A DNA stretch of 64,000 nt, from assembly GCA_963678445.1 (NCBI GenBank), contig OY782877.1, positions 3,178,503 to 3,242,502 on the forward strand. Direction: 5' to 3'. Positions 46,351 to 61,269 of the stretch are shown here, piece after piece. The DNA comes from Candidatus Hydrogenedentota bacterium (GTDB taxonomy: Bacteria > Hydrogenedentota > Hydrogenedentia > Hydrogenedentales > G963678445). The position numbers and the translations under genes are program-made. The first letter of the stretch is position 1. Each line of letters opens with the position of its first letter. The notes under the pieces are model-generated. The model saw nothing but the letters and a program-made list of their open reading frames with translations. It did no database searches and was not told the origin of the DNA.

Positions 46351-46711
46351 GGGGGCGACATGGTCTCGACGGGGATGAAAGAAGCGAAGGATGCGTGCCG
46401 AGGACCCCGGTGGCCTCGTAAAAAACCGGGATTTGTTAACTGCGAACAATGAATTCGCACTTGCCGCCTAAATAATGGCGACACGCTCTACCTGTGACTG
46501 CCTGCTAACGGGATAGAGCGCCGACTAGCGGGCCTTGAACCCGGGCGGTTGGGTTGGTCCCCCCGGTGAGAGTAAGTTGACCCTCTAGCGAAGCTGGACA
46601 GCGCGCCTGACGCGGTCCGGTGGGGCGAATCTTTTAAAGGACAGGCTACGCACGTAGAAGCCTTCGTGGACGCATCTTCGGACGCGGGTTCGATTCCCGC
46701 CGCCTCCACCA
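46351..46711 (+). ncRNA. ssrA: tmRNA (transfer-messenger RNA, SsrA)
   Basis: 5' GGGGGCGACAUGG pairs with the 3' ...CGCCGCCUCCACCA acceptor stem (7 bp, one G-U). T-arm GGTTCGATTCC. Internal tag reading frame gcg aac aat gaa ttc gca ctt gcc gcc taa encodes ANNEFALAA followed by a stop. 3' CCA is encoded. Confidence 0.92.
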
Positions 46712-46739
46712 TTTTTTGATTGCAGCAAGCCTATGTTAC

Positions 46740-47270
46740 TCAACGGCTTGCTGCGATTTTCACTCTTATCTGGCTTACTTTGGTCACGCATTTAGCACGC
46801 TCGAACATTTCGAGTACAGGTTCAGTTACTTTCTCAGATAGCATCTGCATGTTTGCCTGATTGCTCTGAGCATAGGTATTGAATGTTAAGCGCGGGTCGC
46901 TGTGGTCAAGTGCTTCCTGCGCCTCTTTCCCATAGTTGCGCCATTTTCGACAACAAAAGTTGCATACGCCACACGCAATGAATGGAAGTCAATTTTCCCT
47001 TCTCCGGTTTCCTTTCAACACTGGACAAGGCCATGCTCAAGGTCATGCGGCGAGTTTTACCGCCCAAACGACCTGGAGACGGGCTTCTTGGTAGGTCATA
47101 TCCAGATCATTCTGGTTCGCCCCATTGAACCCGTCGGCATTTCTGATGAATCCCACGCATGTGTCACATTCCACTCGCTATCCATTTCGAGCGTATGCTC
47201 CAACTCCACATGGTCGAGGAGGTCGCCCTTCCGCGCCGTAAGGAACTCCCATCAAGTATGCTTTGCTACA
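46740..47270 (-). pseudogene. Degraded tyrosine recombinase (phage-type integrase) remnant adjacent to tmRNA
   Basis: Minus-strand translation gives DFHSLRVAYATFVVENGATMGK (box II H-x-L-R...A-T...ENGA). After a +1 frameshift it gives QEALDHSDPRLTFNTYAQ (catalytic Tyr motif L-G/D-H-S...T...Y). There are at least 3 in-frame stops further upstream. It terminates 29 nt from the tmRNA 3' end. Confidence 0.6.
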
Positions 47271-47319
47271 ACTACTTAGCAGAATCAGACTCCAATTGCG
47301 TGTAGTACCGCAACGATAT

Positions 47320-50100: not shown

Positions 50101-51009
50101 TTATTCTTTCGGCAGGAGCCACCAGTAGTCTTTTTTGTTCTCCTCCCACCAGGTGAGCCAGTAGGCGGTGTCGTGGACGTTGTCAGGCACCACGTTGGGT
50201 ACACGTTTGGGGACTAAGCGTACGCCGTCGTCGTATTCTCCCTCTTCCTGGGGATATACGAGGCCGTATCCTCTATCAATGAGATCTTGTACTTCGGGCG
50301 GTGGTGAAGTATGTTTTTTGGGCCTAGATTTTAGAAGGCGAATTTCTTCTTCCTCTCCTTCCACTGGGGTGAGCGCCAGGGTCAGGAGCACGAGATCGTA
50401 ATAATCTGAATGCTCTTCCTGGATGCGTTGCATAATAAAAGGGACGGCTAGAAGCCCCATTGTCTTCAATGCGGAAAAAGTAGGCTCAGAGAACAGTTTT
50501 TCCTTGTCGATAGCTCCCTGCGCCAGACGTTGATCAAAGGCCTGTCTTCTGACCACGAAGGCTTCTTTTGAATAGGTAGACACATTTTTCCAGAAATGGA
50601 TTATTTTTCCCTGTATTTCGGGTGTGGGCAACGCACGCCCCGGACGAATCTCATCATAGGTCATACCAGCAACATCTAGCCAGAAGCCATTGAGCATTCT
50701 GGCGAGAGCATCGTCATAATTAAGATTGCCATACTGCGTCTGTATCAGTTCCTCAACCATGAAGGGGACGCCGGCCGCTTGCATATTGACGAGGTTGATG
50801 TAATCCTCGCCGATAAAAAATATATTTGTAGTACTTGAATATTGTAACTTTGGTTTTTTCAATATTTTGGAATCCCAGTTGCTTAAATAGACATTGAATT
50901 GCTTGTATTCTTTTGCGTGCTGCGTATACAGAGAATCGAAAATCTTCTCTTCCTGCGCCATACTGGAAAACGATATACTCAAAACACATGCAAGATAGAA
51001 AAAACGCAT
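50101..51009 (-). CDS. Secreted hypothetical protein, paralog 1 of tandem pair (candidate immunity protein)
   Basis: Start re-assigned to MRFFYLACVLSISFSSMAQE (signal peptide). Near-identical to the upstream paralog over long stretches, including an identical C-terminal 31 aa. Confidence 0.6.
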   Translation of the reverse strand: MRFFYLACVLSISFSSMAQEEKIFDSLYTQHAKEYKQFNVYLSNWDSKILKKPKLQYSSTTNIFFIGEDYINLVNMQAAGVPFMVEELIQTQYGNLNYDDALARMLNGFWLDVAGMTYDEIRPGRALPTPEIQGKIIHFWKNVSTYSKEAFVVRRQAFDQRLAQGAIDKEKLFSEPTFSALKTMGLLAVPFIMQRIQEEHSDYYDLVLLTLALTPVEGEEEEIRLLKSRPKKHTSPPPEVQDLIDRGYGLVYPQEEGEYDDGVRLVPKRVPNVVPDNVHDTAYWLTWWEENKKDYWWLLPKE

Positions 51010-51050
51010 ACTTTGTCCCTTCGCATTTTCATGATCTGCGGGGTGGTGGT

Positions 51051-51956
51051 TTATTCTTTTGGCAGGAGCCACCAGTAGTCTTTTTTGTTCTCTTCCCACC
51101 AGGTAAGCCAGTAGGCGGTGTCGTGGACGTTGTCAGGAACTACGTTGAGGATAGGCTTGGGGACTAAGCGTATACCGTCGTCGTATTCTCCCTCCTCCTC
51201 GAAACATCCGGGACAGTAGTATCTCGTTTCATGGTTCCCTTCTGCGTTCGGCGAAGTGCCTTTTTTGAACCTAGATTTCAGACGGCGAATTTCTTCTTCC
51301 TCTCCTTCCACCGGGGTGAGCGCCATGGTCAGGAGCACGAGATCGTAATAATCTGAATTTTCTTCTTGGATGCGTTGCATAATAGAAGGGACGGCTAGAA
51401 GCCCCATTGTCTTCAATGCGGAAAAAGTAGGCTCAGAGAACAGTTTTTCCTTGTCGATAGCTCCCTGAGCTAAACGCTGATCAAAGGCCTGTCTTCTGAC
51501 CACGAAGGCTTCTCTTGAATAGGTAGACACATTTTTCCAGAAATGGATTATTTTTCCCTGTATTTCGGGTGTGGGCAACGCACGCCCCGGACGAATCTCA
51601 TCATAGGTCATACCAGCAACATTCCTCCACCCCCCCCTGATCATTTTGGAGAGAGCATCGTCATAAAAAGAATTGCCATACTGCGTCTGCATCAGCTTTT
51701 CAATCATGAAGGGTACGCCGAGCGCTTGCATATTGACGAGGTTGATGTAATCCTCACCGATAAAATAAACGTATAGAAGGCTTGAGCTTTGTAGTTTTGG
51801 ATTCTTAAATATCTTGGAATCCCAGTTGTTGAAATACGTGTTAAACTGTTTGTATTCTTTCTCGCGTTGTGTATATAGAGAATCAAAAATCTTTTCCTCC
51901 TGCGCCATGCTGGAAAATGATATACTCAAGATACACATCAGATAAAAAAATCTCAT
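51051..51956 (-). CDS. Secreted hypothetical protein, paralog 2 of tandem pair (candidate immunity protein)
   Basis: Start MRFFYLMCILSISFSSMAQE with RBS aaggag 7 nt upstream, 16 nt after the stop of the giant gene. About 90% nucleotide identity to the 50101-51050 unit. Confidence 0.6.
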   Translation of the reverse strand: MRFFYLMCILSISFSSMAQEEKIFDSLYTQREKEYKQFNTYFNNWDSKIFKNPKLQSSSLLYVYFIGEDYINLVNMQALGVPFMIEKLMQTQYGNSFYDDALSKMIRGGWRNVAGMTYDEIRPGRALPTPEIQGKIIHFWKNVSTYSREAFVVRRQAFDQRLAQGAIDKEKLFSEPTFSALKTMGLLAVPSIMQRIQEENSDYYDLVLLTMALTPVEGEEEEIRRLKSRFKKGTSPNAEGNHETRYYCPGCFEEEGEYDDGIRLVPKPILNVVPDNVHDTAYWLTWWEENKKDYWWLLPKE

Positions 51957-51972
51957 TTCAGGCTCCTTATCC

Positions 51973-54900
51973 TTATCTATAATACCGCGTTGGTGGACCA
52001 TATTCTTTTAACCACGTGTCGCCATGCGTAATGCGCTCTTCTTTACCTCGTTTACTACCCCAATTTCCGCCACAATCGTCTATTTTATAGGCGTGAAGAC
52101 CTTTTTTCGGGTTATTCTCGTCAAACACAAGGCCCACCCTGGCCCCTTCTCTGGTTGCACAGTGTTCGAAACCATGCTCCGCATAGAACGCATCCCAGTC
52201 ATCATTTTTAATTTTCCCATCGTTATTGCCATACTCAGCATCAACAGAAACGTACTTAGGATCTGAAGAAGGGTAAAAATAGGTTATCCATTTGTCGGTT
52301 CTTCCCACACTCCAGGCGATACAGTTGTATCTATCTGTAGGTTCGTCGGTTTTACAGACAGGGACCAGTTTTTCTTCTCCTTCTGTATAATATCCTAGAA
52401 ATGCGCAGGCTGCGTTTGGGATTCCACAGGCGCATATTGGCTGGAAAACAGGGGTTATGCTTCTGGATTCCGTCATTGTAAGGTAAATGGTGCTTTTTTT
52501 GAGGTTGGAGAGAGTGTTGGGCAGAAAGACTCTTGTCCAGCCGTTGGTGTCGGATGTGGCGTAGCCCCAGGCATCGCCTTTGCCGCACCAGCCTGCGAAG
52601 GCGTAGCCGGGTAGGGGACGGGCTTTTATCTGGACGATATCGTTGTCGTTGTAGTATTTTTGGGCAGGGTCGCTGGTAACGTAACCTTTACATCTTGAAT
52701 AGCCGAGATCGAGGGTGTGGGCGGATTTGGCTTTGTAGCTAACATGGGCGCCGCATGAGCTTGGGGTGGTCTCCCAGCTTACGCCTTGATATCCAAGGGT
52801 ATTAGAGTGTGGAACAGGAATGGCTGTAACATCACAGGAGCTGGAGCAGGTAACGGGAGGTAGAATTCGGGTTCCACCAACGATAATGGGCAGGACGCCA
52901 ATTGTGCTTGAGGAGGTATAGGTCTTTGCTGTAGAGGGAATGGGGGAAGATGAAATGATGGGTTCGAGCGCCGTAAGCTCAGATTTTCCCGGAAGTTGTA
53001 TGGTGGCGCCGTAGCTGATGACATCGTTAATGACGCCATTGTCATAGAGTTCCCAACGTCCCTTGCCCTCGGGGGGGAGGAAAAAGCTGATGGTGACGGA
53101 TTCGTTTTGTGGCGTAGTGATGTTAACGCCTTGGTAAATATCACTTTCGTCATATACCGGGCTTATGGAACCCTCCGAAAGAAGATGTAACCCCACGTTT
53201 TCGGCTATTTGAGCAGCCGGCAGAAAAAGTGTGGTCTCCCATTTTTCGATAACGTTTGCTTTGATGGTATAGCCCTCATAGGATTTGGGCACCACAAAGG
53301 TTTCGACGGATTTGTCGCTACCGTCTATGGGCAGGTCGGGCGCGTGCCAGCAGCTGAAGGTGGCGAATGCCGGATTGATGGTCTCGGCAGTAACGGTGAC
53401 CTCGCGTCCAACACGCAACGGTACGGTGCTATTTTCGCCAATGGTGTCAATTTCGCAGTCGTTGGTTTTTCCGGTAATGCGAATGGCCACCCTTTCGGGT
53501 TCGGGGCCATCATTACCATCCGGATCCAAAAGCACGTTTTCCAAGGTAATTGGCGTAGTCGCACCGTTGCATGTATCGTTTTCACAAGTGACGCATTCTC
53601 CGGGTGGGGGTTGGTAGCCGGAGGGCGCTATGCCGTCGCTGGCGTTTGAACCGTAGTTTTTGGCGTCGCCCAGGGATGTGCTGCTCGCGGCTTTTGGGGC
53701 GTTCAGGGACGCTGGCTGTACGCTATCCAGGGTATAGTGCCATTCGCCGATGTTGACCAGGCCGTCGTTGTCGCAGTCGTTTTCGGGGGCGAAGTGTTGT
53801 AGGGATTCGATGGCGTAGTTGCTGCTGTCGAGTTCGATGCCGGTGAGTTCTTCGATTTCGTGGCATATCATGTCGGTGGCGCCGTAGTAGCCGAGGGTCA
53901 TGTAGGAGGCGATTACGTTGATGATAGCGGCGGTGCATTCGACGGGTTGGGGGTTGATGAGGGGGTTGCACCAGGGGCTGATATCCGTTGTGGCGCGTGC
54001 GTGGTTTTGCATAAAGTGCTTGTAAACCAGTTTGTTGGATACCCCGCCGGTTTCGGACAGGTTAATCTCGGGATGGAGCAGAACGTGTTCGAGCAGGGCG
54101 AATTCGGCGGCGTCGGGGATGCCGTTTTCGGTGTGGATGGGGTTACCGGCTTCGTCGAAGAAGAGGCCACCGCGGTCCCATTGCATGTTGCTCACTTCTT
54201 GGGCGGAGGTGAGTTCTCCGATGTTTTCCAGGAATATGCCGAGGTCAGCGATCAGGTCGAGGTCGGTCAGTTCGGAACGTTCCTCGAAAAAGGCGGTAAG
54301 GATAACGTCGGCATCAAGGGGAAGCTGTATGTCGGGGAAGGGAATGCCGCCGGTGTTTTGCTGGAAGGCCATGTTGTTGAAATTGGCGATGCGGAGGGTG
54401 TTGTGCCATTGGTCCTGCCAGTAGAGGAAGGTCCAGTCGGTGTCTGCCTGTGCGGTGAGGGGCAGGGTGTTTACTTCGCAGTCGGGACAGTCGGTCTGGG
54501 TGGAGTTGGGCGGCCAGTCGAGGGGGCTGTAGGTGAGGATGTATTTTGTGCCTTCGAAGGGGGTAAGTGCACCGTTGCCCTCGTCTTGGAGAGTTACTTT
54601 GACACTGGGAGGTGTGCCGGTCGCTTCGGGATCGTTCACACTGAGCAGCATCTCTTTGCTTACCAATTGGTTGGAGGTGCTAAGCGCAAGGGCATGGAAA
54701 AAACCGGGGGTGTCGGTCCAGGTAGTGAAAGAGGCAAAACCGTCTTCCACATCCTGAAACAGGTATTCTTCGAGGTTGGTGAATCCATCACCATCAAAAT
54801 CACCATCCTGATGAAACACATCGTCGAGGCAGGTGAATTCCCAACAGGATGGGGGCTGCGGAACGATTCCGTAGCGTTGGACCAGGTTGGCAATGTAGAG

Positions 54901-55872
54901 GGCCTCGGCGTTCAAAACGCTTTCCAGGCTAAGTGTGCTATACGTGGCCAGTGCGCAAACTACGGCGTAGTCGGGATGGGTAAAGTTGGGTAGCTGTGCC
55001 GCCACTGTGTCGTTGTATTCAAGCCAGAGGGCCAGATTGGATAGCCATGCGCTCCGGGCTTCCGCATAGAGCGGATGGCTCTGGTCCTCCAATACGCGCT
55101 CGAGTAGGAAGAATTCCAGCACGTCGGGTATGTGGTAGCCTTTTGTATCCGGGTTCAGATTAAAGAGTCCGGTAGTATCAATAGCCGTCTGATCGATGTT
55201 CAGCGTGGGGAGAAATTGGCTTATAAAAGGACGTGTCAAAAAATCCCAATCAACATCGTCAATTTGGTTCAGGATGTTGTTGTAATCGGCTAGCAGCAAT
55301 GCCAGTGTGTCTATGGGACCCAGCGTAAGATCGGGAGGATTGAGGGAGCGATCGATACCGCGCAGGTAATCAACAAAGTGCTGCAGGTCGCCCGGCAGGT
55401 GATGTTTAACAAATACGGCATTTACACTGGTATTCGTCGTTAAGGGGAAGGTGAGCGGCCATGCATACTGCGCTGCACCGGTATCCACCGACCAGTGGTC
55501 AAAGCGGTACCCGATAGACGGCGTTGCTTTAAGGGTGAGGGGCGTGTTCCAGCCAAAGGTGTAGGGCGAATTATAGGACACACCGCCAGATTCGACAGTA
55601 ACGTCGCCTTGGGTCGTGTCGCAAGTAAGATTCAGCGTATATTGGTCAAGCTCAAACGTGGCGTATGCGGTTATATCCCTGTTCATGGTAAGCACCACCG
55701 TACTGGGTTGGGTAGCGAGATCCCCCGTCCATCCCGTGAAATGATAATGAGGATTGGGCATCGCGCTAAGCGTGACGGAGTCGCCGTAGGTATACACTAT
55801 AGGGAAGCTATCCGTATTCGGCGGCGTCGCGGTGACATGACCGCTTCCCTTACTCAAGTCGTTTCTATTCAC
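51973..55872 (-). CDS. Giant (1299 aa) multi-domain secreted/surface protein with a C-terminal Cys/His putative hydrolase (toxin-like) domain
   Basis: Repeated GYxFxGW/HW InlB-B-repeat-like modules (HYHFTGWTGD, GYRFDHWSVD, GYAFAGWCGKGD). Thrombospondin-type-3/dockerin-like Ca-binding loops (DGDFDGDGFTNLEEY, DCDNDGLVNIGEW). A distinct last ~160 aa (…YNCIAWSVGRTDKW…HAYKIDDCGGNW…). Confidence 0.7.
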   Translation of the reverse strand: MNRNDLSKGSGHVTATPPNTDSFPIVYTYGDSVTLSAMPNPHYHFTGWTGDLATQPSTVVLTMNRDITAYATFELDQYTLNLTCDTTQGDVTVESGGVSYNSPYTFGWNTPLTLKATPSIGYRFDHWSVDTGAAQYAWPLTFPLTTNTSVNAVFVKHHLPGDLQHFVDYLRGIDRSLNPPDLTLGPIDTLALLLADYNNILNQIDDVDWDFLTRPFISQFLPTLNIDQTAIDTTGLFNLNPDTKGYHIPDVLEFFLLERVLEDQSHPLYAEARSAWLSNLALWLEYNDTVAAQLPNFTHPDYAVVCALATYSTLSLESVLNAEALYIANLVQRYGIVPQPPSCWEFTCLDDVFHQDGDFDGDGFTNLEEYLFQDVEDGFASFTTWTDTPGFFHALALSTSNQLVSKEMLLSVNDPEATGTPPSVKVTLQDEGNGALTPFEGTKYILTYSPLDWPPNSTQTDCPDCEVNTLPLTAQADTDWTFLYWQDQWHNTLRIANFNNMAFQQNTGGIPFPDIQLPLDADVILTAFFEERSELTDLDLIADLGIFLENIGELTSAQEVSNMQWDRGGLFFDEAGNPIHTENGIPDAAEFALLEHVLLHPEINLSETGGVSNKLVYKHFMQNHARATTDISPWCNPLINPQPVECTAAIINVIASYMTLGYYGATDMICHEIEELTGIELDSSNYAIESLQHFAPENDCDNDGLVNIGEWHYTLDSVQPASLNAPKAASSTSLGDAKNYGSNASDGIAPSGYQPPPGECVTCENDTCNGATTPITLENVLLDPDGNDGPEPERVAIRITGKTNDCEIDTIGENSTVPLRVGREVTVTAETINPAFATFSCWHAPDLPIDGSDKSVETFVVPKSYEGYTIKANVIEKWETTLFLPAAQIAENVGLHLLSEGSISPVYDESDIYQGVNITTPQNESVTISFFLPPEGKGRWELYDNGVINDVISYGATIQLPGKSELTALEPIISSSPIPSTAKTYTSSSTIGVLPIIVGGTRILPPVTCSSSCDVTAIPVPHSNTLGYQGVSWETTPSSCGAHVSYKAKSAHTLDLGYSRCKGYVTSDPAQKYYNDNDIVQIKARPLPGYAFAGWCGKGDAWGYATSDTNGWTRVFLPNTLSNLKKSTIYLTMTESRSITPVFQPICACGIPNAACAFLGYYTEGEEKLVPVCKTDEPTDRYNCIAWSVGRTDKWITYFYPSSDPKYVSVDAEYGNNDGKIKNDDWDAFYAEHGFEHCATREGARVGLVFDENNPKKGLHAYKIDDCGGNWGSKRGKEERITHGDTWLKEYGPPTRYYR

Positions 55873-56379
55873 TTCAAGTTTTCTTTCCTGTCTGGGATTA
55901 TATAATCCAGACCAGAAATTGATATACGAGCGGAAAGGGCACTTTAGACTTACGCAATACCCCCCTCACGGATGTAGGTCCGGGGGGGCTTTTTTAGATC
56001 TGTCGACAGACATCCCCGATAACGTCATAGAAACTCATTTTCTTCGGAGTATCCCGTGTCTGAGATAATATTGCTTGTGAAATACATCAGCTTCATTCAA
56101 TAGTTGGTGGACCTTGGGAGTGTTCTTTATCTGATATCCAATTATCATAGTGATTGGAAGCGCAGGAAGACTAACAAAATTTATCGAGAATAGCTCCATA
56201 TAACATATTTGAAATCAGCTACATATGAAGGGTGTTCTGAAATAGAATTCGGTGCTTTGTTAGCACTTGACATCAATGAGTGCTAAGCGTTATACTCATA
56301 ATTATCCTAAAAAGGGTGCGTATTAAGCGCCAGAGATAGCTTAGCAAAACAGAGATTATAAAGGACTTAACGAAACCAC

Positions 56380-57363
56380 ATGACAGAACCTTTTCAGATA
56401 CTCTCGTTAGATGGCGGCGGCATCAAGGGCCTATTTTCTGCTGCTGTGCTGGCACATATCGAGAAGGACTTGAAAACCCGAATCGTAGACCATTTCGATT
56501 TAATCGTCGGCACTTCTACCGGTGGAATCATAGCTCTGGCCCTAGGCCTAGGAATATCGCCCAAGGAGATAGTTGAGTTCTATGTAGAAAAAGGACCAAA
56601 GATTTTTCCGAAGGGATGGTTGTTTCGGCCTGTAAGAGGACTTCAACATTATGTCATGCGAAAATTCTCTGCTAGGGGACTTGAGAAGGCTCTTCAAGAA
56701 ATCGCTGGCGACAAGACTCTGGGAGACTGCCAAAAGCGTTTAGTAGTTCCTTCCTATAACCTTCAAGAGAATGATGTTTACCTTTTCAAGACCCCCCATC
56801 ATAAACGCTTTCGAAGGGACTGGGAAATTCCTGTCTGGAAGGTGGCCCGTGCGACCTCCGCTGCTCCTACATACTTCTCGGCATACAGAGGGATTGATTC
56901 TGTCCGTCTCATTGACGGAGGTGTGTGGGCAAATAATCCGTGTATGGTGGGTGTAGTCGAAGCTATGAGCACACTCTCTGTTGATTCTGCCTGCCTGAAA
57001 CTATTTAGCATTGGTACTTCAGATGGAGTAGTACGGCGCTCCTCGCTACTTGATTGGGCAGGGCGTTTTCTTTGGGCACGTCACGCCAGCGATGTGCTCT
57101 TGGACGCGCAGTCAAGAGGAGCCTTCACCCAAGCTAAACTCATTTTAGGCACGGACCGGACGTACCGCATCAACCCTAAGGTACCTGCGGGGCTGTTCGG
57201 TCTCGATAAATTGTCAACAAAAGAACATCTAGGTATGGCAGCTCACCAAAGTAGAAAGTTTATACCTATCTTTGAACAACACTTCGCAGCCCACACCGCC
57301 CCAAAGTATCAACCGTTCTATGGCCGAAACTCAGATACCGACGAAACACCGACAACTGATTAA
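56380..57363 (+). CDS. Patatin-like phospholipase (CBASS CapV/CapE-type effector)
   Basis: Oxyanion GGGIKG, nucleophile elbow GTSTGG (GxSxG), catalytic DGG (LIDGGVWANNP). Confidence 0.85.
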   Translation: MTEPFQILSLDGGGIKGLFSAAVLAHIEKDLKTRIVDHFDLIVGTSTGGIIALALGLGISPKEIVEFYVEKGPKIFPKGWLFRPVRGLQHYVMRKFSARGLEKALQEIAGDKTLGDCQKRLVVPSYNLQENDVYLFKTPHHKRFRRDWEIPVWKVARATSAAPTYFSAYRGIDSVRLIDGGVWANNPCMVGVVEAMSTLSVDSACLKLFSIGTSDGVVRRSSLLDWAGRFLWARHASDVLLDAQSRGAFTQAKLILGTDRTYRINPKVPAGLFGLDKLSTKEHLGMAAHQSRKFIPIFEQHFAAHTAPKYQPFYGRNSDTDETPTTD

Positions 57364-57371
57364 GGAAACAT

Positions 57372-58565
57372 ATGATGGAGACAAAACAAAAAGTGATTGA
57401 GTCGTTGGTAGAATCGCTTGAGGTTTCGCCTAGCACGTATGAGTTAGCCGAAAGCAGGTATAAGGATTTGGGGGTGTGGCTTCATGACGCTTCCAAAGCA
57501 AAGGTAGCGCCATATGATCCACATGTTTTTCCCCAAGGCTCTATTCGGCTTGGCACAGCCATTCGCCCCTTGGATTCCGACCATTACGATTTGGACCTAG
57601 CGTGCGAATTGCGAGCAGGTATCTCGACGAATTCTCACAGCCAAGAAGATGTAAAGGCTTTTATTGGCGGGGATCTTGAGAAATATCGAATCGAGCGAAA
57701 TATTAAGGATAAGCTTGATGAAAAACATCGCTGTTGGAGGCTAAACTACCAAGATAGTCCTAGATTCCATATGGACACCGTTCCATGTATCCCACACGAT
57801 GAAAAAATACGACAACATCTTTTTGAAAGCATGAAAACGGGAAGCATCCAGACAGAACTCGCTGATAACATCGCCAATCAAGCAATTGCTATCACTGATA
57901 ACAGGCGGCCAGATTTTTCCATGCTCTCTCCCAACTGGCCTATCAGCAATCCCGAAGGATATGCTATTTGGTTTGAATCCCGCATGAGACAAGCGAAGCA
58001 GCTTCTCGAATGTCGGGTGGCTTCGGCTCTGGTAGCAAGTATCGAGGAGCTTCCTACTTACCAATGGAAATCCCCACTTCAGCGATGTGTGCAGATTTTG
58101 AAACGGCATAGGGACCAGATGTTTCGTCAGAATGGCGATGCCAAACCTATCTCAATAATCATAACGACTCTGGCCGCTCAGGCCTACCAGGGTGAACGCG
58201 ACATATACGAGGTGCTTGCGCAGATTTTGAACTCAATGGGTAACTTTGTACGCCCTACAGCGCCACGTGTCCCAAATCCTGTAAATCCGAAAGAAGACTT
58301 TGCCGACAAGTGGGGCACGCTAGAAGGAAAGCGGCTTGCACTTGAAGATAACTTCCGGCTTTGGCTGCAACAAGCAAAGGCAGACTTTGAAAACCTTTCC
58401 TCCGCAAGAACACGCCAGCGGGTGGCTTCACTGACTACTCATAAGTATGGAGTGAATATCAGCGAAGAACGACTTGAGCAAATCCCAGGGCTTTCTTCAT
58501 CTGCCCCGACAATTGCGTCTTTTAAGATCGCCGAATCGTCACCCCCAAAGCCATGGCAAAAGTAA
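57372..58565 (+). CDS. cGAS/DncV-like nucleotidyltransferase (CD-NTase, SMODS-type)
   Basis: Pol-beta-type minimal NTase signature GS-x9-D-x-D (QGSIRLGTAIRPLDSDHYDLDL) plus a third acidic residue (FHMDTVPCIP). 397 aa. Starts 9 nt after the patatin gene (RBS aaggaaa) and overlaps the next gene by 13 nt. Confidence 0.7.
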   Translation: MMETKQKVIESLVESLEVSPSTYELAESRYKDLGVWLHDASKAKVAPYDPHVFPQGSIRLGTAIRPLDSDHYDLDLACELRAGISTNSHSQEDVKAFIGGDLEKYRIERNIKDKLDEKHRCWRLNYQDSPRFHMDTVPCIPHDEKIRQHLFESMKTGSIQTELADNIANQAIAITDNRRPDFSMLSPNWPISNPEGYAIWFESRMRQAKQLLECRVASALVASIEELPTYQWKSPLQRCVQILKRHRDQMFRQNGDAKPISIIITTLAAQAYQGERDIYEVLAQILNSMGNFVRPTAPRVPNPVNPKEDFADKWGTLEGKRLALEDNFRLWLQQAKADFENLSSARTRQRVASLTTHKYGVNISEERLEQIPGLSSSAPTIASFKIAESSPPKPWQK

Positions 58566-59221
58566 AAAAAACTTGGACGGATATTGATCTACAGGGATTT
58601 CTACGCAAGTTCCCTGACATGTCTGTAGTACCGCAGAAAGAAGGTTCGTTGGTTCTTGAGGGTTGTTTTAGCTTTGAGGCATCAACAACTTCTCATGGCT
58701 CTGAGTCTGGTACTTACCTTCTTCGAATCAAAGTTCCACCCTCATTTCCTGCAGAGCTTCCTCGGGTTCAAGAACTCGGAAAGCGCATACCTAAGAATCC
58801 AGAACACCATATCAATTCCGACGGTTCACTCTGTTTGGGATCGCGTATCCGTCTACTTGTTCAAATCTCAAAAGAGCCGACTCTTTGTGGCTTCGCTAAG
58901 AATTGTCTAATACCATATCTCTTTGCCATCACACGAAAACTAAAACATGGTAACGCACTGGTATTCGGAGAGCTTGCTCACGGCAACACAGGAGAACTCA
59001 ACGATTATGCTGATTTGTTGAATCTTGACAATCCCCCTGCGGTCCTTTGCGCATTGAAGTATCTCGGAATGAAAAAGAGACGCGCCAACAAACTACCTTG
59101 TCCATGTGGCTGTGGCTTGCGCCTTGGCAAGTGTAGATTCAACTTTCATTTACGCGAACTCCGTTGTCTTGCTGAAAGGGATTGGTTTCAGTCGGTCCTA
59201 AGCGATCTGGAGAAACAGTGA
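58553..59221 (+). CDS. E2 ubiquitin-conjugating-like protein (CBASS Cap2-short type) with C-terminal Cys cluster
   Basis: UBC-like active-site region PEHHINSDGSLCLG (HPN-like...G-x-LCL) and a C-terminal CPCGCGLRLGKC. 222 aa, with no E1 or JAB partner present. Confidence 0.55.
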   Translation: MAKVKKTWTDIDLQGFLRKFPDMSVVPQKEGSLVLEGCFSFEASTTSHGSESGTYLLRIKVPPSFPAELPRVQELGKRIPKNPEHHINSDGSLCLGSRIRLLVQISKEPTLCGFAKNCLIPYLFAITRKLKHGNALVFGELAHGNTGELNDYADLLNLDNPPAVLCALKYLGMKKRRANKLPCPCGCGLRLGKCRFNFHLRELRCLAERDWFQSVLSDLEKQ

Positions 59222-59284: not shown

Positions 59285-60805
59285 CTAAAAGAGGGAGGCC
59301 CCCCGGCTATGCCGGGGGATACTTACTAATAACGTCTCCAACTGCGTCAGGCCCGACAAATACGACAAATCCGAGAACTCACCCGTCGCGGATATCTGGT
59401 TTTCACTCAGATTCAGCGTCGTCAGGTTCTTAAGATCTTCCAGAAAATCAATCTCAGAAAAAGAATTGTTCGACAAATCCAACGTCTGCAAATCCAGGCA
59501 ATATTGAATCCCTTCTATCGAAGTAATTCCCAACCCCGACGCATCCAACGAGGTAAAACCTTTGTTTATCAAACCTTCCCAATACAACGTACCTGTCAAT
59601 TTCCCCACCGCCGCACGCACCGCCGTTTCCAAACGCATATCCACAAAATACGTCGTCGCATCCGGTGACGGCAAGGCTACCATCCGCACCTGCACATCGG
59701 AATTCATCGTCAAAGTCGTCGGATTGTCGTAAGCATGGACCGGGTCCATTCCGGGAACAGTCACCTCGAAATACTCAAGAATCCAGTCCTCTTCCGGAAC
59801 CGCCATAATCTCCACCGAAGCACCCGCACGATACTTCTCCGCAATCGGATACGGATATATCCCCAAGCCCGACCAAGACCGTGTCATCGTATAAAACGTT
59901 CCCGCAGGAACCGTCTGCACATCCAACGCCGCCGCATAATACGCCGCAAAATTCTGCTCAAACGTACTCAGCACCGCCTCCTCCTGCCACTCCAGCAGAT
60001 TACTGAACGTATCCCCATCCACATCCCCCTGCGCAGAAATCAGCGGCACCAACGATGTATCCAGCAAGATAGAAAAATCTTCCTCCTCTGCAAACTCAAT
60101 CCCCAACTCATCCGAAAACACCGTGGCTATAAACACAGAAAGCGGATCTCCCAACACCGCATACGCCGTTAACACCTCAACCACCCCCGCAGGCACGCCT
60201 GCCGGGACCGTCGCATCAGCAAACAACGCCGCCACCGCCAACCAACGCGTTGCCAACGCCACATGCGTAAGCCCACCCGAAGCCGACAAATCCACCGTAT
60301 CATCCTGCAACACATCCTCCAACACCAAAAACTCCGCCAGATCCGGAAAACCATTCGGCTCCCCATACGCAACCCCATCCTCATCCAACGACGCACCATT
60401 TAGATCAACCGCCTCTGCGCTATCCGGCAAATCCAAAAACGTTGCAAACGTCGCCATCGAAGCCCGCAGATCCAGATTATCAAACTGCCCACCCGTCTTC
60501 GCCTCCAGAAAGCCCCTACCCCTACTACCCTTTTCCTCCATCAACATCGCGCGCCGCTCAGGATTCGAAAAACTTTCCCAATCCACCGACATACGATGTA
60601 CCCGATCCAATTTTCTCGCCTCCTCCTCCGTGATCCCCTCCATATCCGGCAAAATCTTACGCAACCCCTGCTTCGCACTCGTAAAACGCGGCATCCCCAT
60701 TCCCGAAACTCGAGCACGCCCCTCCAATACCCCCTGCGACCCCGCCTTCCCCTCTCCCGCACCCCGCTTCATCAGAGCCCCCTTCCCTGTATGCCGCAAA
60801 CACAA
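59285..60805 (-). CDS. Leucine-rich-repeat protein sharing N-terminal modules with the giant protein
   Basis: C-terminal LRRs (LDLSNNSFSEIDFLEDLKNLTTLNLSENQIS). N-terminal segments FPDLAEFLVLEDVL and DGDTFSNLLEWQ parallel IPDAAEFALLEHVL and DGDGFTNLEEY of the giant protein. Confidence 0.55.
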   Translation of the reverse strand: MCLRHTGKGALMKRGAGEGKAGSQGVLEGRARVSGMGMPRFTSAKQGLRKILPDMEGITEEEARKLDRVHRMSVDWESFSNPERRAMLMEEKGSRGRGFLEAKTGGQFDNLDLRASMATFATFLDLPDSAEAVDLNGASLDEDGVAYGEPNGFPDLAEFLVLEDVLQDDTVDLSASGGLTHVALATRWLAVAALFADATVPAGVPAGVVEVLTAYAVLGDPLSVFIATVFSDELGIEFAEEEDFSILLDTSLVPLISAQGDVDGDTFSNLLEWQEEAVLSTFEQNFAAYYAAALDVQTVPAGTFYTMTRSWSGLGIYPYPIAEKYRAGASVEIMAVPEEDWILEYFEVTVPGMDPVHAYDNPTTLTMNSDVQVRMVALPSPDATTYFVDMRLETAVRAAVGKLTGTLYWEGLINKGFTSLDASGLGITSIEGIQYCLDLQTLDLSNNSFSEIDFLEDLKNLTTLNLSENQISATGEFSDLSYLSGLTQLETLLVSIPRHSRGASLF

Positions 60806-61097
60806 CTTTTAATTGCCGGAGCAATAACAAGTACAAGGATTGCCTGCCGAATAGAGTTCGATAAGTGCGGCCACGCACTTATGATTTCCGCCAGATCGCC
60901 ATAAATCTGGTGCATACATATAGCACGCTCAGATGTGTTCTCTGTGTGTCTTGAGTGTCGCGGTTCTGTAGTCGAAGTGTTGTTTCGGCAGTCCGAACAC
61001 AGCTTATAACTGTTTAGATTTGTTGTAGTTGTGTGTTCGCATGTGGTTGAAGTGTTGAGATTCTGTGAGGATGTGTTGATAGAATTAATTGCATTTT

Positions 61098-61117
61098 GAT
61101 TCCCGCCTCCTCCACCA
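61098..61117. repeat. attR-like direct repeat of the tmRNA 3' end (island right border)
   Basis: gattcccgcctcctccacca versus tmRNA 46692-46711 gattcccgccgcctccacca (19/20 identical, with tt.gattcc extending the match). Confidence 0.65.
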
Positions 61118-61269
61118 TGCAAACACTTGAGGCCCTTGAGGTTATAATAGCCTCAAGGGCGTTTGTGTATTTGTTGGGTGCGCGTGTGCAGCCATAGCAC
61201 CCATCACGTATTCCCCTGCTTCTCCCAACGAAGTTTTTGTTGTGCTCAGGGGGGGGATGACCATATTTT

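Follow-up and report, generated by a model that had tools for sequence, protein, structure and literature searches.

The operon described here raises the question of how a lone E2-like protein can regulate a CBASS cyclase that does not end in glycine. Published work on the mechanism of E2-CBASS concerns one E2 family (Serratia-type, PF26395) and a C-terminal glycine, and this glycine is treated as conserved in E2-CBASS. As a system, the operon belongs to an ordinary, known type of CBASS with a lone E2-like regulator. What is new, at the level of sequence, is a cyclase devoid of the published conserved C-terminal glycine and a sub-class of cyclase-E2 pairs, defined by a Pro-Trp tail and a Cys4-containing E2, that is large and not covered by any Pfam model.

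The operon lies in a 64-kb stretch of DNA from a Candidatus Hydrogenedentota bacterium (the whole stretch analysed, called here the window). It consists of three ORFs on the + strand, located at 56380-57363 (327 aa), 57372-58565 (397 aa) and 58553-59221 (222 aa). A check of the ORFs bears out the coordinates given in a first-pass annotation of this DNA, as well as the 13-nt overlap that it reported between the second and third genes, whereas the first gap, given there as 9 nt, is 8 nt long (57364-57371). Such spacing is of the type found in translationally coupled operons. The patatin, nucleotidyltransferase and E2 motifs named in that annotation were all found in the translations, and PADLOC gave full-length matches to Phospholipase (PDLC00757, 4.9e-106), Cyclase (PDLC00780, 1.7e-119) and E2 (PDLC00859, 2.4e-77, 215 of the 221 profile positions). 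As each product matches a CBASS-specific profile across its full length, the identity of the operon is far above chance. None of the three ORFs is truncated relative to its family profile, and no catalytic or invariant residue has been lost.

The first gene (56380..57363) encodes a CapV-type patatin-like phospholipase. The protein matches Pfam Patatin (8e-30, profile positions 1-188 of 191), the NCBIfam CBASS_lipase equivalog (259 bits, for a cut-off of 200) and the CBASS patatins and CapV of the PDB (4.5e-40 to 1e-29). The Gly-rich oxyanion loop (GGGIKG, residues 12-17), the GxSxG serine (Ser46 in GTSTG, residues 44-48) and the DG[GA] aspartate (Asp179 in DGG, residues 179-181) of the CapV-type dyad are all present. 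An effector gene of the cyclic-oligonucleotide-activated class is therefore found 8 nt upstream of the cyclase gene.

The second gene (57372..58565) encodes a clade G CD-NTase (CdnG) with the active-site residues GS 56-57, DLD 73-75 (Asp73 and Asp75) and Asp135, which scores 42.7 bits against Pfam DncV-like_NTFase (cut-off 24.9). Its closest solved relative is VcCdnG from the VcCdnG-Cap5 system of Vibrio cholerae 365-96 (PDB 9woo; PMC12804361), with which it aligns end to end (1.1e-113, or 2e-167 using the family profile); the matches to SmCdnG (5.1e-48) and BdCdnG (5.4e-20) are lower. The AF2 model, computed from an alignment built from search hits, has a pLDDT of 92.4. Foldseek placed SmCdnG and BdCdnG at the top of its matches, followed by other CD-NTases and cGAS, in agreement with the earlier reading of this protein as a CBASS cyclase. 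VcCdnG, SmCdnG and AsCdnG all produce 3'2'-cGAMP (PMC12804361; bioRxiv 10.1101/2022.05.25.493364; PMC8568899). By its sequence, the window cyclase most likely makes the same cyclic dinucleotide, which would then be the ligand of the patatin, by analogy with the relatives of the cyclase only. The CapV enzymes characterised so far respond to 3'3'-cGAMP.

The third gene (58553..59221), whose ATG is located within the codons for Pro-Trp of the cyclase gene, encodes an E2-only protein. As proposed in the first-pass annotation, the product has a predicted UBC fold, since its AF2 model (pLDDT 92.4) matches E2-type folds only, SmE2 and Cap2 included. The protein had also been described as small, but it is larger than the E2-only proteins studied so far. 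Its active-site stretch (58808..58834, + strand), identified from conservation and alignments, comprises His86-Ile-Asn88 and Cys94, the latter within SLCLG. In the E2 family, His86 and Cys94 are invariant and Asn88 is at least 90% conserved. These three residues align with the HxN...Cys of eukaryotic E2s, and His86 and Cys94 align with the His and Cys of the Sm-type E2 (hhalign probability 68%, E 4.7e-5, a remote relation). The Sm-type E2 is a member of the short Trp-rich PF26395 family, whereas the window E2 lies outside it: neither this protein nor any of 31 members of its family matched PF26395 (E2-CBASS) at E up to 1, no Pfam family was found for any of the 31, and a search of the PDB by sequence with the family profile, at E up to 1, did not retrieve SmE2. 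The sub-class comprises 1,987 E2 representatives at 50% identity (E up to 0.001). A CdnG gene lies directly upstream of an E2 gene of this type in 76 of 80 related loci, and no natural cyclase-E2 fusion was found among the 120 best cyclase matches and the 150 best E2 representatives. A literature search found no experimental work on this E2 sub-class and nothing relevant on Trp tails in CBASS or on CBASS E2s that carry a zinc/SEC-C knuckle.

In canonical type II, Cap2 (about 590 aa) fuses an E1 to an E2 and works with the JAB protease Cap3. The operon contains neither an E1 (ThiF) domain nor a JAB peptidase gene, the 222-aa E2 gives no ThiF match with Pfam, and both Cap2 and the Cap3 isopeptidase of canonical type II are missing from the locus. 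This combination of a CD-NTase, an effector and a stand-alone E2 supports the type II-short classification proposed earlier. The resemblance to capV-dncV-cap2 that had been pointed out also holds, as the gene order (effector, cyclase, E2-containing regulator) is that of capV-dncV-cap2-cap3 of Vibrio cholerae and the patatins share their NCBIfam equivalog; DncV, however, belongs to clade A and produces 3'3'-cGAMP, whereas the window cyclase belongs to clade G. The locus is thus very probably an intact type II-short (E2-only) CBASS, in which the signal made by the cyclase activates the patatin and the E2 regulates the cyclase via its tail. Its action could be pictured as follows: upon phage infection, the clade G CD-NTase would make a cyclic dinucleotide that would switch on the CapV-type patatin; the activated patatin would degrade membrane lipids, and the infected cell would be killed or arrested before phage release.

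The tail of the cyclase (residues 371-397; 58482..58562, + strand) is predicted to be flexible. In the AF2 model of the monomer, two helices (348-359 and 365-369) are followed by coil (pLDDT 51-76) without any sheet, and the tail could fold on binding. The references for comparison are the E2-CBASS of Serratia marcescens (SmCdnG-SmE2, PDB 8hsb/8yjy; Yan et al., bioRxiv 10.1101/2022.05.25.493364; Xiao et al. 2026, PMC12948482). [quoted passage not shown] Sm-type cyclases have a conserved glycine at or next to the C-terminus, whereas the tail of the window cyclase (...SSPPKPWQK) ends with Pro394-Trp395 and a two-residue extension, QK. Gly378 (in ...IPG378LSS...), 20 residues from the end of the cyclase, is not conserved. 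An attempt to align the window tail with the Gly-ended tail of SmCdnG failed; as the profile alignment halts at SmCdnG residue 370, the two tails are not alignable.

Pro394 and Trp395 are invariant in the cyclase alignment, and all 65 full-length tails of the related loci end with xPW followed by 1-7 variable residues, a conserved glycine being found in none. VcCdnG has a tail of the same type (...SSDPKPWFK), although the effector of its system is Cap5 (HNH-SAVED) instead of a patatin; the paper describing it does not mention an E2 partner (PMC12804361). An overlap with the start codon of the E2 gene does not explain why Pro-Trp is kept: the Pro is encoded by any of the four Pro codons, the frame offset is not constant, and the E2 ATG falls within CCATGG in only four of the 65 loci. 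The dipeptide is conserved at the amino-acid level, with synonymous change left free.

Among close homologs, the type of tail matches the type of partner (Cap2+JAB, short PF26395 E2 or Cys4 E2) without exception. None of the six close homologs that end with Gly or Ala has the same type of partner as the window cyclase: Cap2+JAB adjoin close CdnG homologs whose tails end with Gly or Ala, and the partner of CdnG homologs ending with ...F[YH]G is a PF26395 E2. At least three sets of tail and partner are thus interchangeable among clade G cyclases that are 47-56% identical, each cyclase having one of them. The Pro-Trp tail with the zinc-knuckle E2 is the commonest set among the relatives of the cyclase (86 of the 120 closest CdnG homologs).

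The E2s of this set carry a cluster of cysteines (Cys183-x-Cys185-x-Cys187-x6-Cys194; 59099..59134, + strand), which has the sequence CPCGCGLRLGKC (residues 183-194) in the window protein and is preceded by a basic stretch, KKRRANK. This tail had been considered unusual; it is instead a predicted SEC-C-like zinc knuckle found family-wide, its four cysteines being invariant across the E2 family. The relationship to SEC-C (C-x-C-x8-C-[CH], as at the SecA C-terminus) appears through distant E2 relatives that bear CPCGSGRRLGRCH (C-x-C-x8-C-H) and fit this pattern, whereas the subgroup of the window has lost the final His, which is replaced by a Cys located two residues past the second Cys. A census of the ligands agrees with such a replacement: 205 sequences have the third Cys and no His, and 29 have the His and no third Cys. 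Neither SEC-C nor any other Pfam model matched, at E 1, the 31 aligned members of the CxCxC type, a scan confined to this type, as distinct from the CPCGSG-type relatives. The Cys4 knuckle is inferred to bind a metal.

How, then, might such an E2 act on such a tail? The protein, with its His86/Cys94 active site and its C-terminal Cys4 zinc knuckle, would regulate the cyclase through the flexible C-terminal tail of the latter. By analogy with the ATP-independent transpeptidation shown for SmE2 of Serratia, it can be tentatively proposed, as a possibility somewhat short of probable, that this regulation is a reaction of the same kind that would take place at the invariant Pro-Trp. Cys94 would attack the peptide bond that follows Trp395, the short variable extension (QK) would be released, and the cyclase, now carried by the E2 through a thioester or isopeptide bond, would be primed in this way. 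An invariant residue followed by an extension of variable length is a pattern common to ubiquitin-like precursors and SmCdnG (Gly406-Glu407). To our knowledge, no E2 is known to use an acyl donor as bulky as Trp. In a broader and still more doubtful proposal, the Cys4-knuckle E2 and the Pro-Trp CdnG may represent a third, mechanistically distinct E2-cGAS coupling, in which the tail would be processed or conjugated at the Trp and the knuckle would take part in tail recognition or in the sensing of infection.

A purely noncovalent mode of action, in which Pro-Trp would be a docking peptide bound reversibly by the E2, perhaps with the help of the zinc knuckle, so that the cyclase is kept either inactive or active until phage infection is signalled, is rather unlikely, though the most probable of the alternatives. 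Such docking would suit a tail that is disordered in isolation according to AF2 and has neither Gly nor Ala at the usual conjugation position; Trp is a typical anchor for peptide-binding pockets, and SEC-C-type knuckles are protein-binding modules. However, His86 and Cys94 are invariant and match the catalytic His and Cys of the Sm-type E2 in the alignment, which is not expected of a pure binder, and the variable-length extension past the Trp resembles a leaving group.

It is quite improbable that the E2 depends on an E1 from another part of the genome or moves the cyclase onto a host target, as a trans-acting type II system would. E2 enzymes normally require an E1, the window covers only 64 kb of a genome of about 5.1 Mb, and Cap2 in Bacillus reportedly transfers the cyclase onto the host protein PspA. 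Yet the same cyclase-E2 pair occurs without a linked E1 in related loci across dozens of phyla, and in the E1-dependent systems of this CdnG clade, the operon retains Cap2+JAB and the cyclase tail ends with Gly or Ala. Moreover, a C-terminus with a variable extension could be adenylated only after a protease had acted on it. An action identical to that of SmE2, i.e., a cleavage after a C-terminal Gly leading to a Gly-Cys thioester, a Gly-Lys isopeptide and poly-cGASylation, is highly improbable: the last 25 residues of the cyclase contain no Gly and the 65 related tails no conserved one, the window E2 is outside PF26395 with a family profile that misses SmE2, and it is the homologs ending with ...F[YH]G that use a PF26395 E2.

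If processing or conjugation at the Trp proves true, this chemistry would be a widespread exception to the C-terminal Gly rule of ubiquitin-like conjugation, and it would also break the published claim that Gly is conserved in E2-CBASS. The use of a non-glycine acyl donor by bacterial E2-like enzymes would bear on the evolution of ubiquitin-type chemistry. For annotation, the locus adds one more intact E2-only CBASS that apparently arrived at a tmRNA gene, a useful and routine result.

The tmRNA gene in question (ssrA; 46351..46711, + strand; tag peptide ANNEFALAA) was identified with ARAGORN. A 24-nt direct repeat that includes its 3' end plus one base (candidate attL, 46689..46712) has a second copy, 22/24 identical, at 61095..61118 (candidate attR; both + strand), a second match of this kind being found in 0 of 100 shuffles. 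The two copies bracket a 14.4-kb segment that holds the operon. As the segment is bounded by this tmRNA 3'-end repeat, the operon was probably acquired via integration at ssrA, the integrase having since been lost. The acquisition with a tmRNA island proposed in the first-pass annotation is thus supported by the repeat that closes the segment, but no integrase remains: none of the segment's six large ORFs encodes an integrase domain, the 600 bp beside the tmRNA gene contain only short ORFs, none conspicuous, and the one scanned there (46902-47279, 125 aa) has no Pfam match. The GC content of the segment (0.49) differs only slightly from that of its flanks (0.51-0.52). PADLOC found no further defence genes in the segment, and the ORFs that flank the operon encode InlB-repeat/DUF7689 and LRR proteins without PADLOC matches. 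The lost integrase and the lack of other defence genes nearby would fit a decayed or non-defence remnant, such as a nucleotide-signalling module that has been recruited into normal cell physiology, but the full-length ORFs, the intact catalytic and invariant residues and the coupled-operon spacing make this scarcely credible.

A scan for promoters and terminators gave the same counts as expected from shuffled sequences. A GC-rich hairpin, CCCCCGGC-UAU-GCCGGGGG (59300..59320), lies between the E2 stop codon and a convergent gene; it has no U-tract on the + strand and a fold z-score of only -1.66, and might at best be a terminator shared by the two genes. One promoter-like site with 11/12 consensus positions was kept, TTGACA-18-TATACT (56267..56296, + strand), about 84 nt 5' of the patatin start codon; it is the best of the region and, as the total count of sites equals the shuffle expectation, only a candidate.

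Three plus-strand ORFs encode a patatin effector (56380-57363; 327 aa, GGGIKG at 12-17, GTSTG at 44-48, DGG at 179-181), a CdnG cyclase (57372-58565; 397 aa, GS at 56-57, DLD at 73-75, D135) and an E2-only regulator (58553-59221; 222 aa, HIN at 86-88, Cys94 in SLCLG, CPCGCGLRLGKC at 183-194). The coordinates and motifs reported by the first-pass annotation were all recovered, as was the 13-nt overlap between the cyclase and E2 genes, but the patatin and cyclase genes are separated by 8 nt rather than the 9 nt reported. The cyclase ORF starts with two ATG codons (57372-57377), and its database copy (P0121) has 396 aa, one residue less, which fits a start at the second ATG. The best promoter candidate (TTGACA-18-TATACT, 56267-56296) belongs to a class of sites no more numerous than expected from shuffling; a GC hairpin (59300-59320) separates the E2 stop codon from the convergent gene.

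The three proteins match CBASS-specific PADLOC profiles over their full length (Phospholipase, 4.9e-106; Cyclase, 1.7e-119; E2, 2.4e-77). The patatin exceeds the equivalog cut-off of NCBIfam CBASS_lipase (259 bits vs 200) and has CapV and CBASS patatins of solved structure among its matches (4.5e-40 to 1e-29). The cyclase is related end to end to VcCdnG (PDB 9woo; 1.1e-113) and also to SmCdnG of the Serratia marcescens E2-CBASS (3.3e-31), and the fold of its AF2 model (pLDDT 92.4) matches SmCdnG and BdCdnG first, then CdnB, CdnD, DncV, cGAS and OAS. These matches resolve in favour of CBASS the two doubts attached to the first-pass annotation, i.e. that the cyclase might lie outside the cGAS/DncV group and that the third protein might lack a UBC fold. 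As no E1 or JAB gene is found in the operon, its architecture is that of a type II-short (E2-only) CBASS, as had been proposed.

Related loci were compared in a sample of 80 that encode this type of E2, drawn from many phyla and including 65 full-length cyclases. A CdnG homologue is found immediately upstream of the E2 gene in 76 of the 80 loci, and all 65 cyclases end with xPW followed by 1-7 variable residues, most commonly two (KPW in 36, RPW in 26), the residues corresponding to Pro394 and Trp395 being invariant. The proline codon varies (CCG 25, CCT 19, CCA 13, CCC 8), the offset of the E2 frame relative to the tail differs among loci (27/25/13) and the E2-frame ATG lies within CCATGG in only 4 of 65. 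These data rule out that the Pro-Trp pair is kept merely by the overlapping E2 start codon and show selection on the protein. A literature search found no paper describing this tail or the E2 knuckle discussed below, and the paper on VcCdnG does not mention E2 (PMC12804361).

The best 120 cyclase homologues (47-56% identical) carry a Pro-Trp tail (86), a Gly end (27) or an Ala end (5). The neighbourhoods of six Gly- or Ala-ended homologues were checked. Tails of the ...PH[KR]F[YH]G type (P0175, P0132, P0189) adjoin a 145-151-aa E2-CBASS protein of PF26395, the family of short Serratia-type E2 (P0175 partner vs SmE2, 8.4e-9), whereas ...RGGGR[LF]G tails (P0160, P0185) and the ...KPAGFA tail (P0226) adjoin Cap2 (E2+ThiF) and a JAB protein. 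Furthermore, the longest contigs of nine Pro-Trp-tailed cyclase matches are equal in size to those of matches to the E2 with four tail cysteines (e.g. 360,921, 4,291,766 and 47,025 bases). Since tail type matches partner type in the six neighbourhoods and the nine pairings, closely related cyclases bear any one of three or more interchangeable sets of tail and partner. The window carries the Pro-Trp/four-cysteine set, which is the uncharacterised one. The residual interest lies in this sub-class, the operon being ordinary as a system and correctly recognised at first pass.

The E2 had been described as small, with an unusual Cys-cluster tail; it belongs instead to a large family whose members are 215-220 aa long (276 matches in a clustered database; 1,987 representatives at 50% identity, E up to 0.001), and its four tail cysteines (183, 185, 187, 194) are invariant in a 31-sequence alignment, together with H86, C94, C118, H143, K129, K174 and K180. 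None of the Pfam models, among them those of E2 families and of SEC-C, matched any of these 31 members, all of CxCxC type, better than E 0.16. A profile comparison (hhalign E 4.7e-5) shows the family to be remotely homologous to the Serratia-type E2, the catalytic His and Cys of the two being aligned. Remoter members bear CPCGSGRRLGRCH, a SEC-C-type C-x-C-x8-C-H pattern. In a set of 270 sequences, the additional third Cys occurs without the His in 205 and the His without the third Cys in 29, while only 6 have the motif with both absent. The pattern suggests that one fourth metal ligand was exchanged for another in compensation, which supports a predicted zinc knuckle, metal binding being itself deduced from these residues. 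P0291 (469 aa) combines such an E2 domain (2-211) with about 250 residues of unassigned nature and may be a natural fusion hinting at the working partner of the E2.

Effectors beside the cyclase-E2 pair in the 65 loci include Cap5-like HNH-SAVED (34), patatin (19) and 2TM-SAVED (2) proteins; the patatin version of the window is thus a common arrangement. Judging from its homologues VcCdnG, SmCdnG and AsCdnG, the window cyclase most likely makes 3'2'-cGAMP as its signal, the product demonstrated for VcCdnG, a clade G enzyme (PMC12804361). The CapV enzymes that have been characterised are responsive to 3'3'-cGAMP. The most likely working of the system is as follows: the E2 would act on the cyclase tail, holding the cyclase in check or priming it; infection would lead to cyclic dinucleotide synthesis; the dinucleotide would activate the patatin, which would degrade membrane lipids and cause abortive infection.

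SmE2 cuts after Gly406 of SmCdnG and, without ATP, makes Gly-Cys101 thioester and Gly-Lys159 isopeptide links; the link is lost in G406V and G406L, and high conservation of the Gly across CD-NTases associated with an E2 was reported (bioRxiv 10.1101/2022.05.25.493364; PMC12948482). Whereas SmCdnG has this Gly near its C-terminus and a C-terminal three-stranded sheet, the window cyclase ends with ...SSPPKPWQK, i.e. Pro-Trp plus QK, and its last 25 residues are free of Gly; its AF2 model shows no such sheet and predicts disorder for the final ~27 residues. The SmCdnG tail could not be aligned with the tails of the window family. The regulatory step might be a SmE2-like transpeptidation at the invariant Trp395 in which the variable extension is released, a proposal made tentatively and at somewhat less than even chances. 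Its main rival, non-covalent docking of the Pro-Trp peptide by the E2, is rated only a little less likely. Gly-dependent chemistry identical to that of SmE2 is contradicted by the cyclase sequence.

In eight related loci, including L027, L028, L040 and L044, a type I restriction R subunit (HsdR, ~1070 aa) is encoded just downstream of E2, and L084 has a BrxL gene upstream; elsewhere, the module therefore sits in defence islands, unlike in the window. A 450-456-aa protein encoded after E2 in L021 (6617-7984) and L033 (6742-8094) might have a further role in defence or regulation; the L021 copy carries Schlafen/AlbA_2, RecG-like ATPase C-terminal and HTH domains.

Acquisition of the operon with a tmRNA island had also been suggested. 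The 3' end of ssrA (46351-46711) is repeated on the same strand (46689-46712 and 61095-61118; 22 of 24 nt identical), and no shuffled sequence gave a second match. The intervening 14.4 kb contain, besides the CBASS operon (the only PADLOC match of the segment), six genes whose products are of secreted or surface type; GC content is 0.47 in the operon, 0.49 in the segment and 0.51-0.52 in the flanks. The repeat thus speaks for the suggestion and the failure to find any integrase domain in the segment against it. The simplest reading is integration at ssrA followed by integrase loss, and the segment looks like a decayed ssrA-integrated island.

The operon is flanked by minus-strand genes for large surface-type proteins, a 1299-aa one with InlB B-repeats and DUF7689 (51973-55872) and a 506-aa LRR protein (59285-60805), neither with a PADLOC match. 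By eye, both share short motifs (G.PD.AEF..LE.VL, D.DGD...N..EW), so the operon lies between two related genes. The 470 bp preceding the operon include a hairpin and T-run resembling a terminator (55976-55991, plus strand); no plus-strand gene comes before it, and it may be left over from a former arrangement. Two tandem paralogous minus-strand genes (50101-51099 and 51051-52001) encode 332- and 316-aa proteins with signal-peptide-like N-termini and no Pfam match; they contain DNA repeats spaced by ~950 nt (94% identity over 300 nt, 88% over 169 nt). GC skew on the plus strand is strong and opposite at 52500-55000 (+0.18 to +0.27) and 59500-61000 (-0.39), and in both stretches long spurious ORFs run antisense to the real genes.
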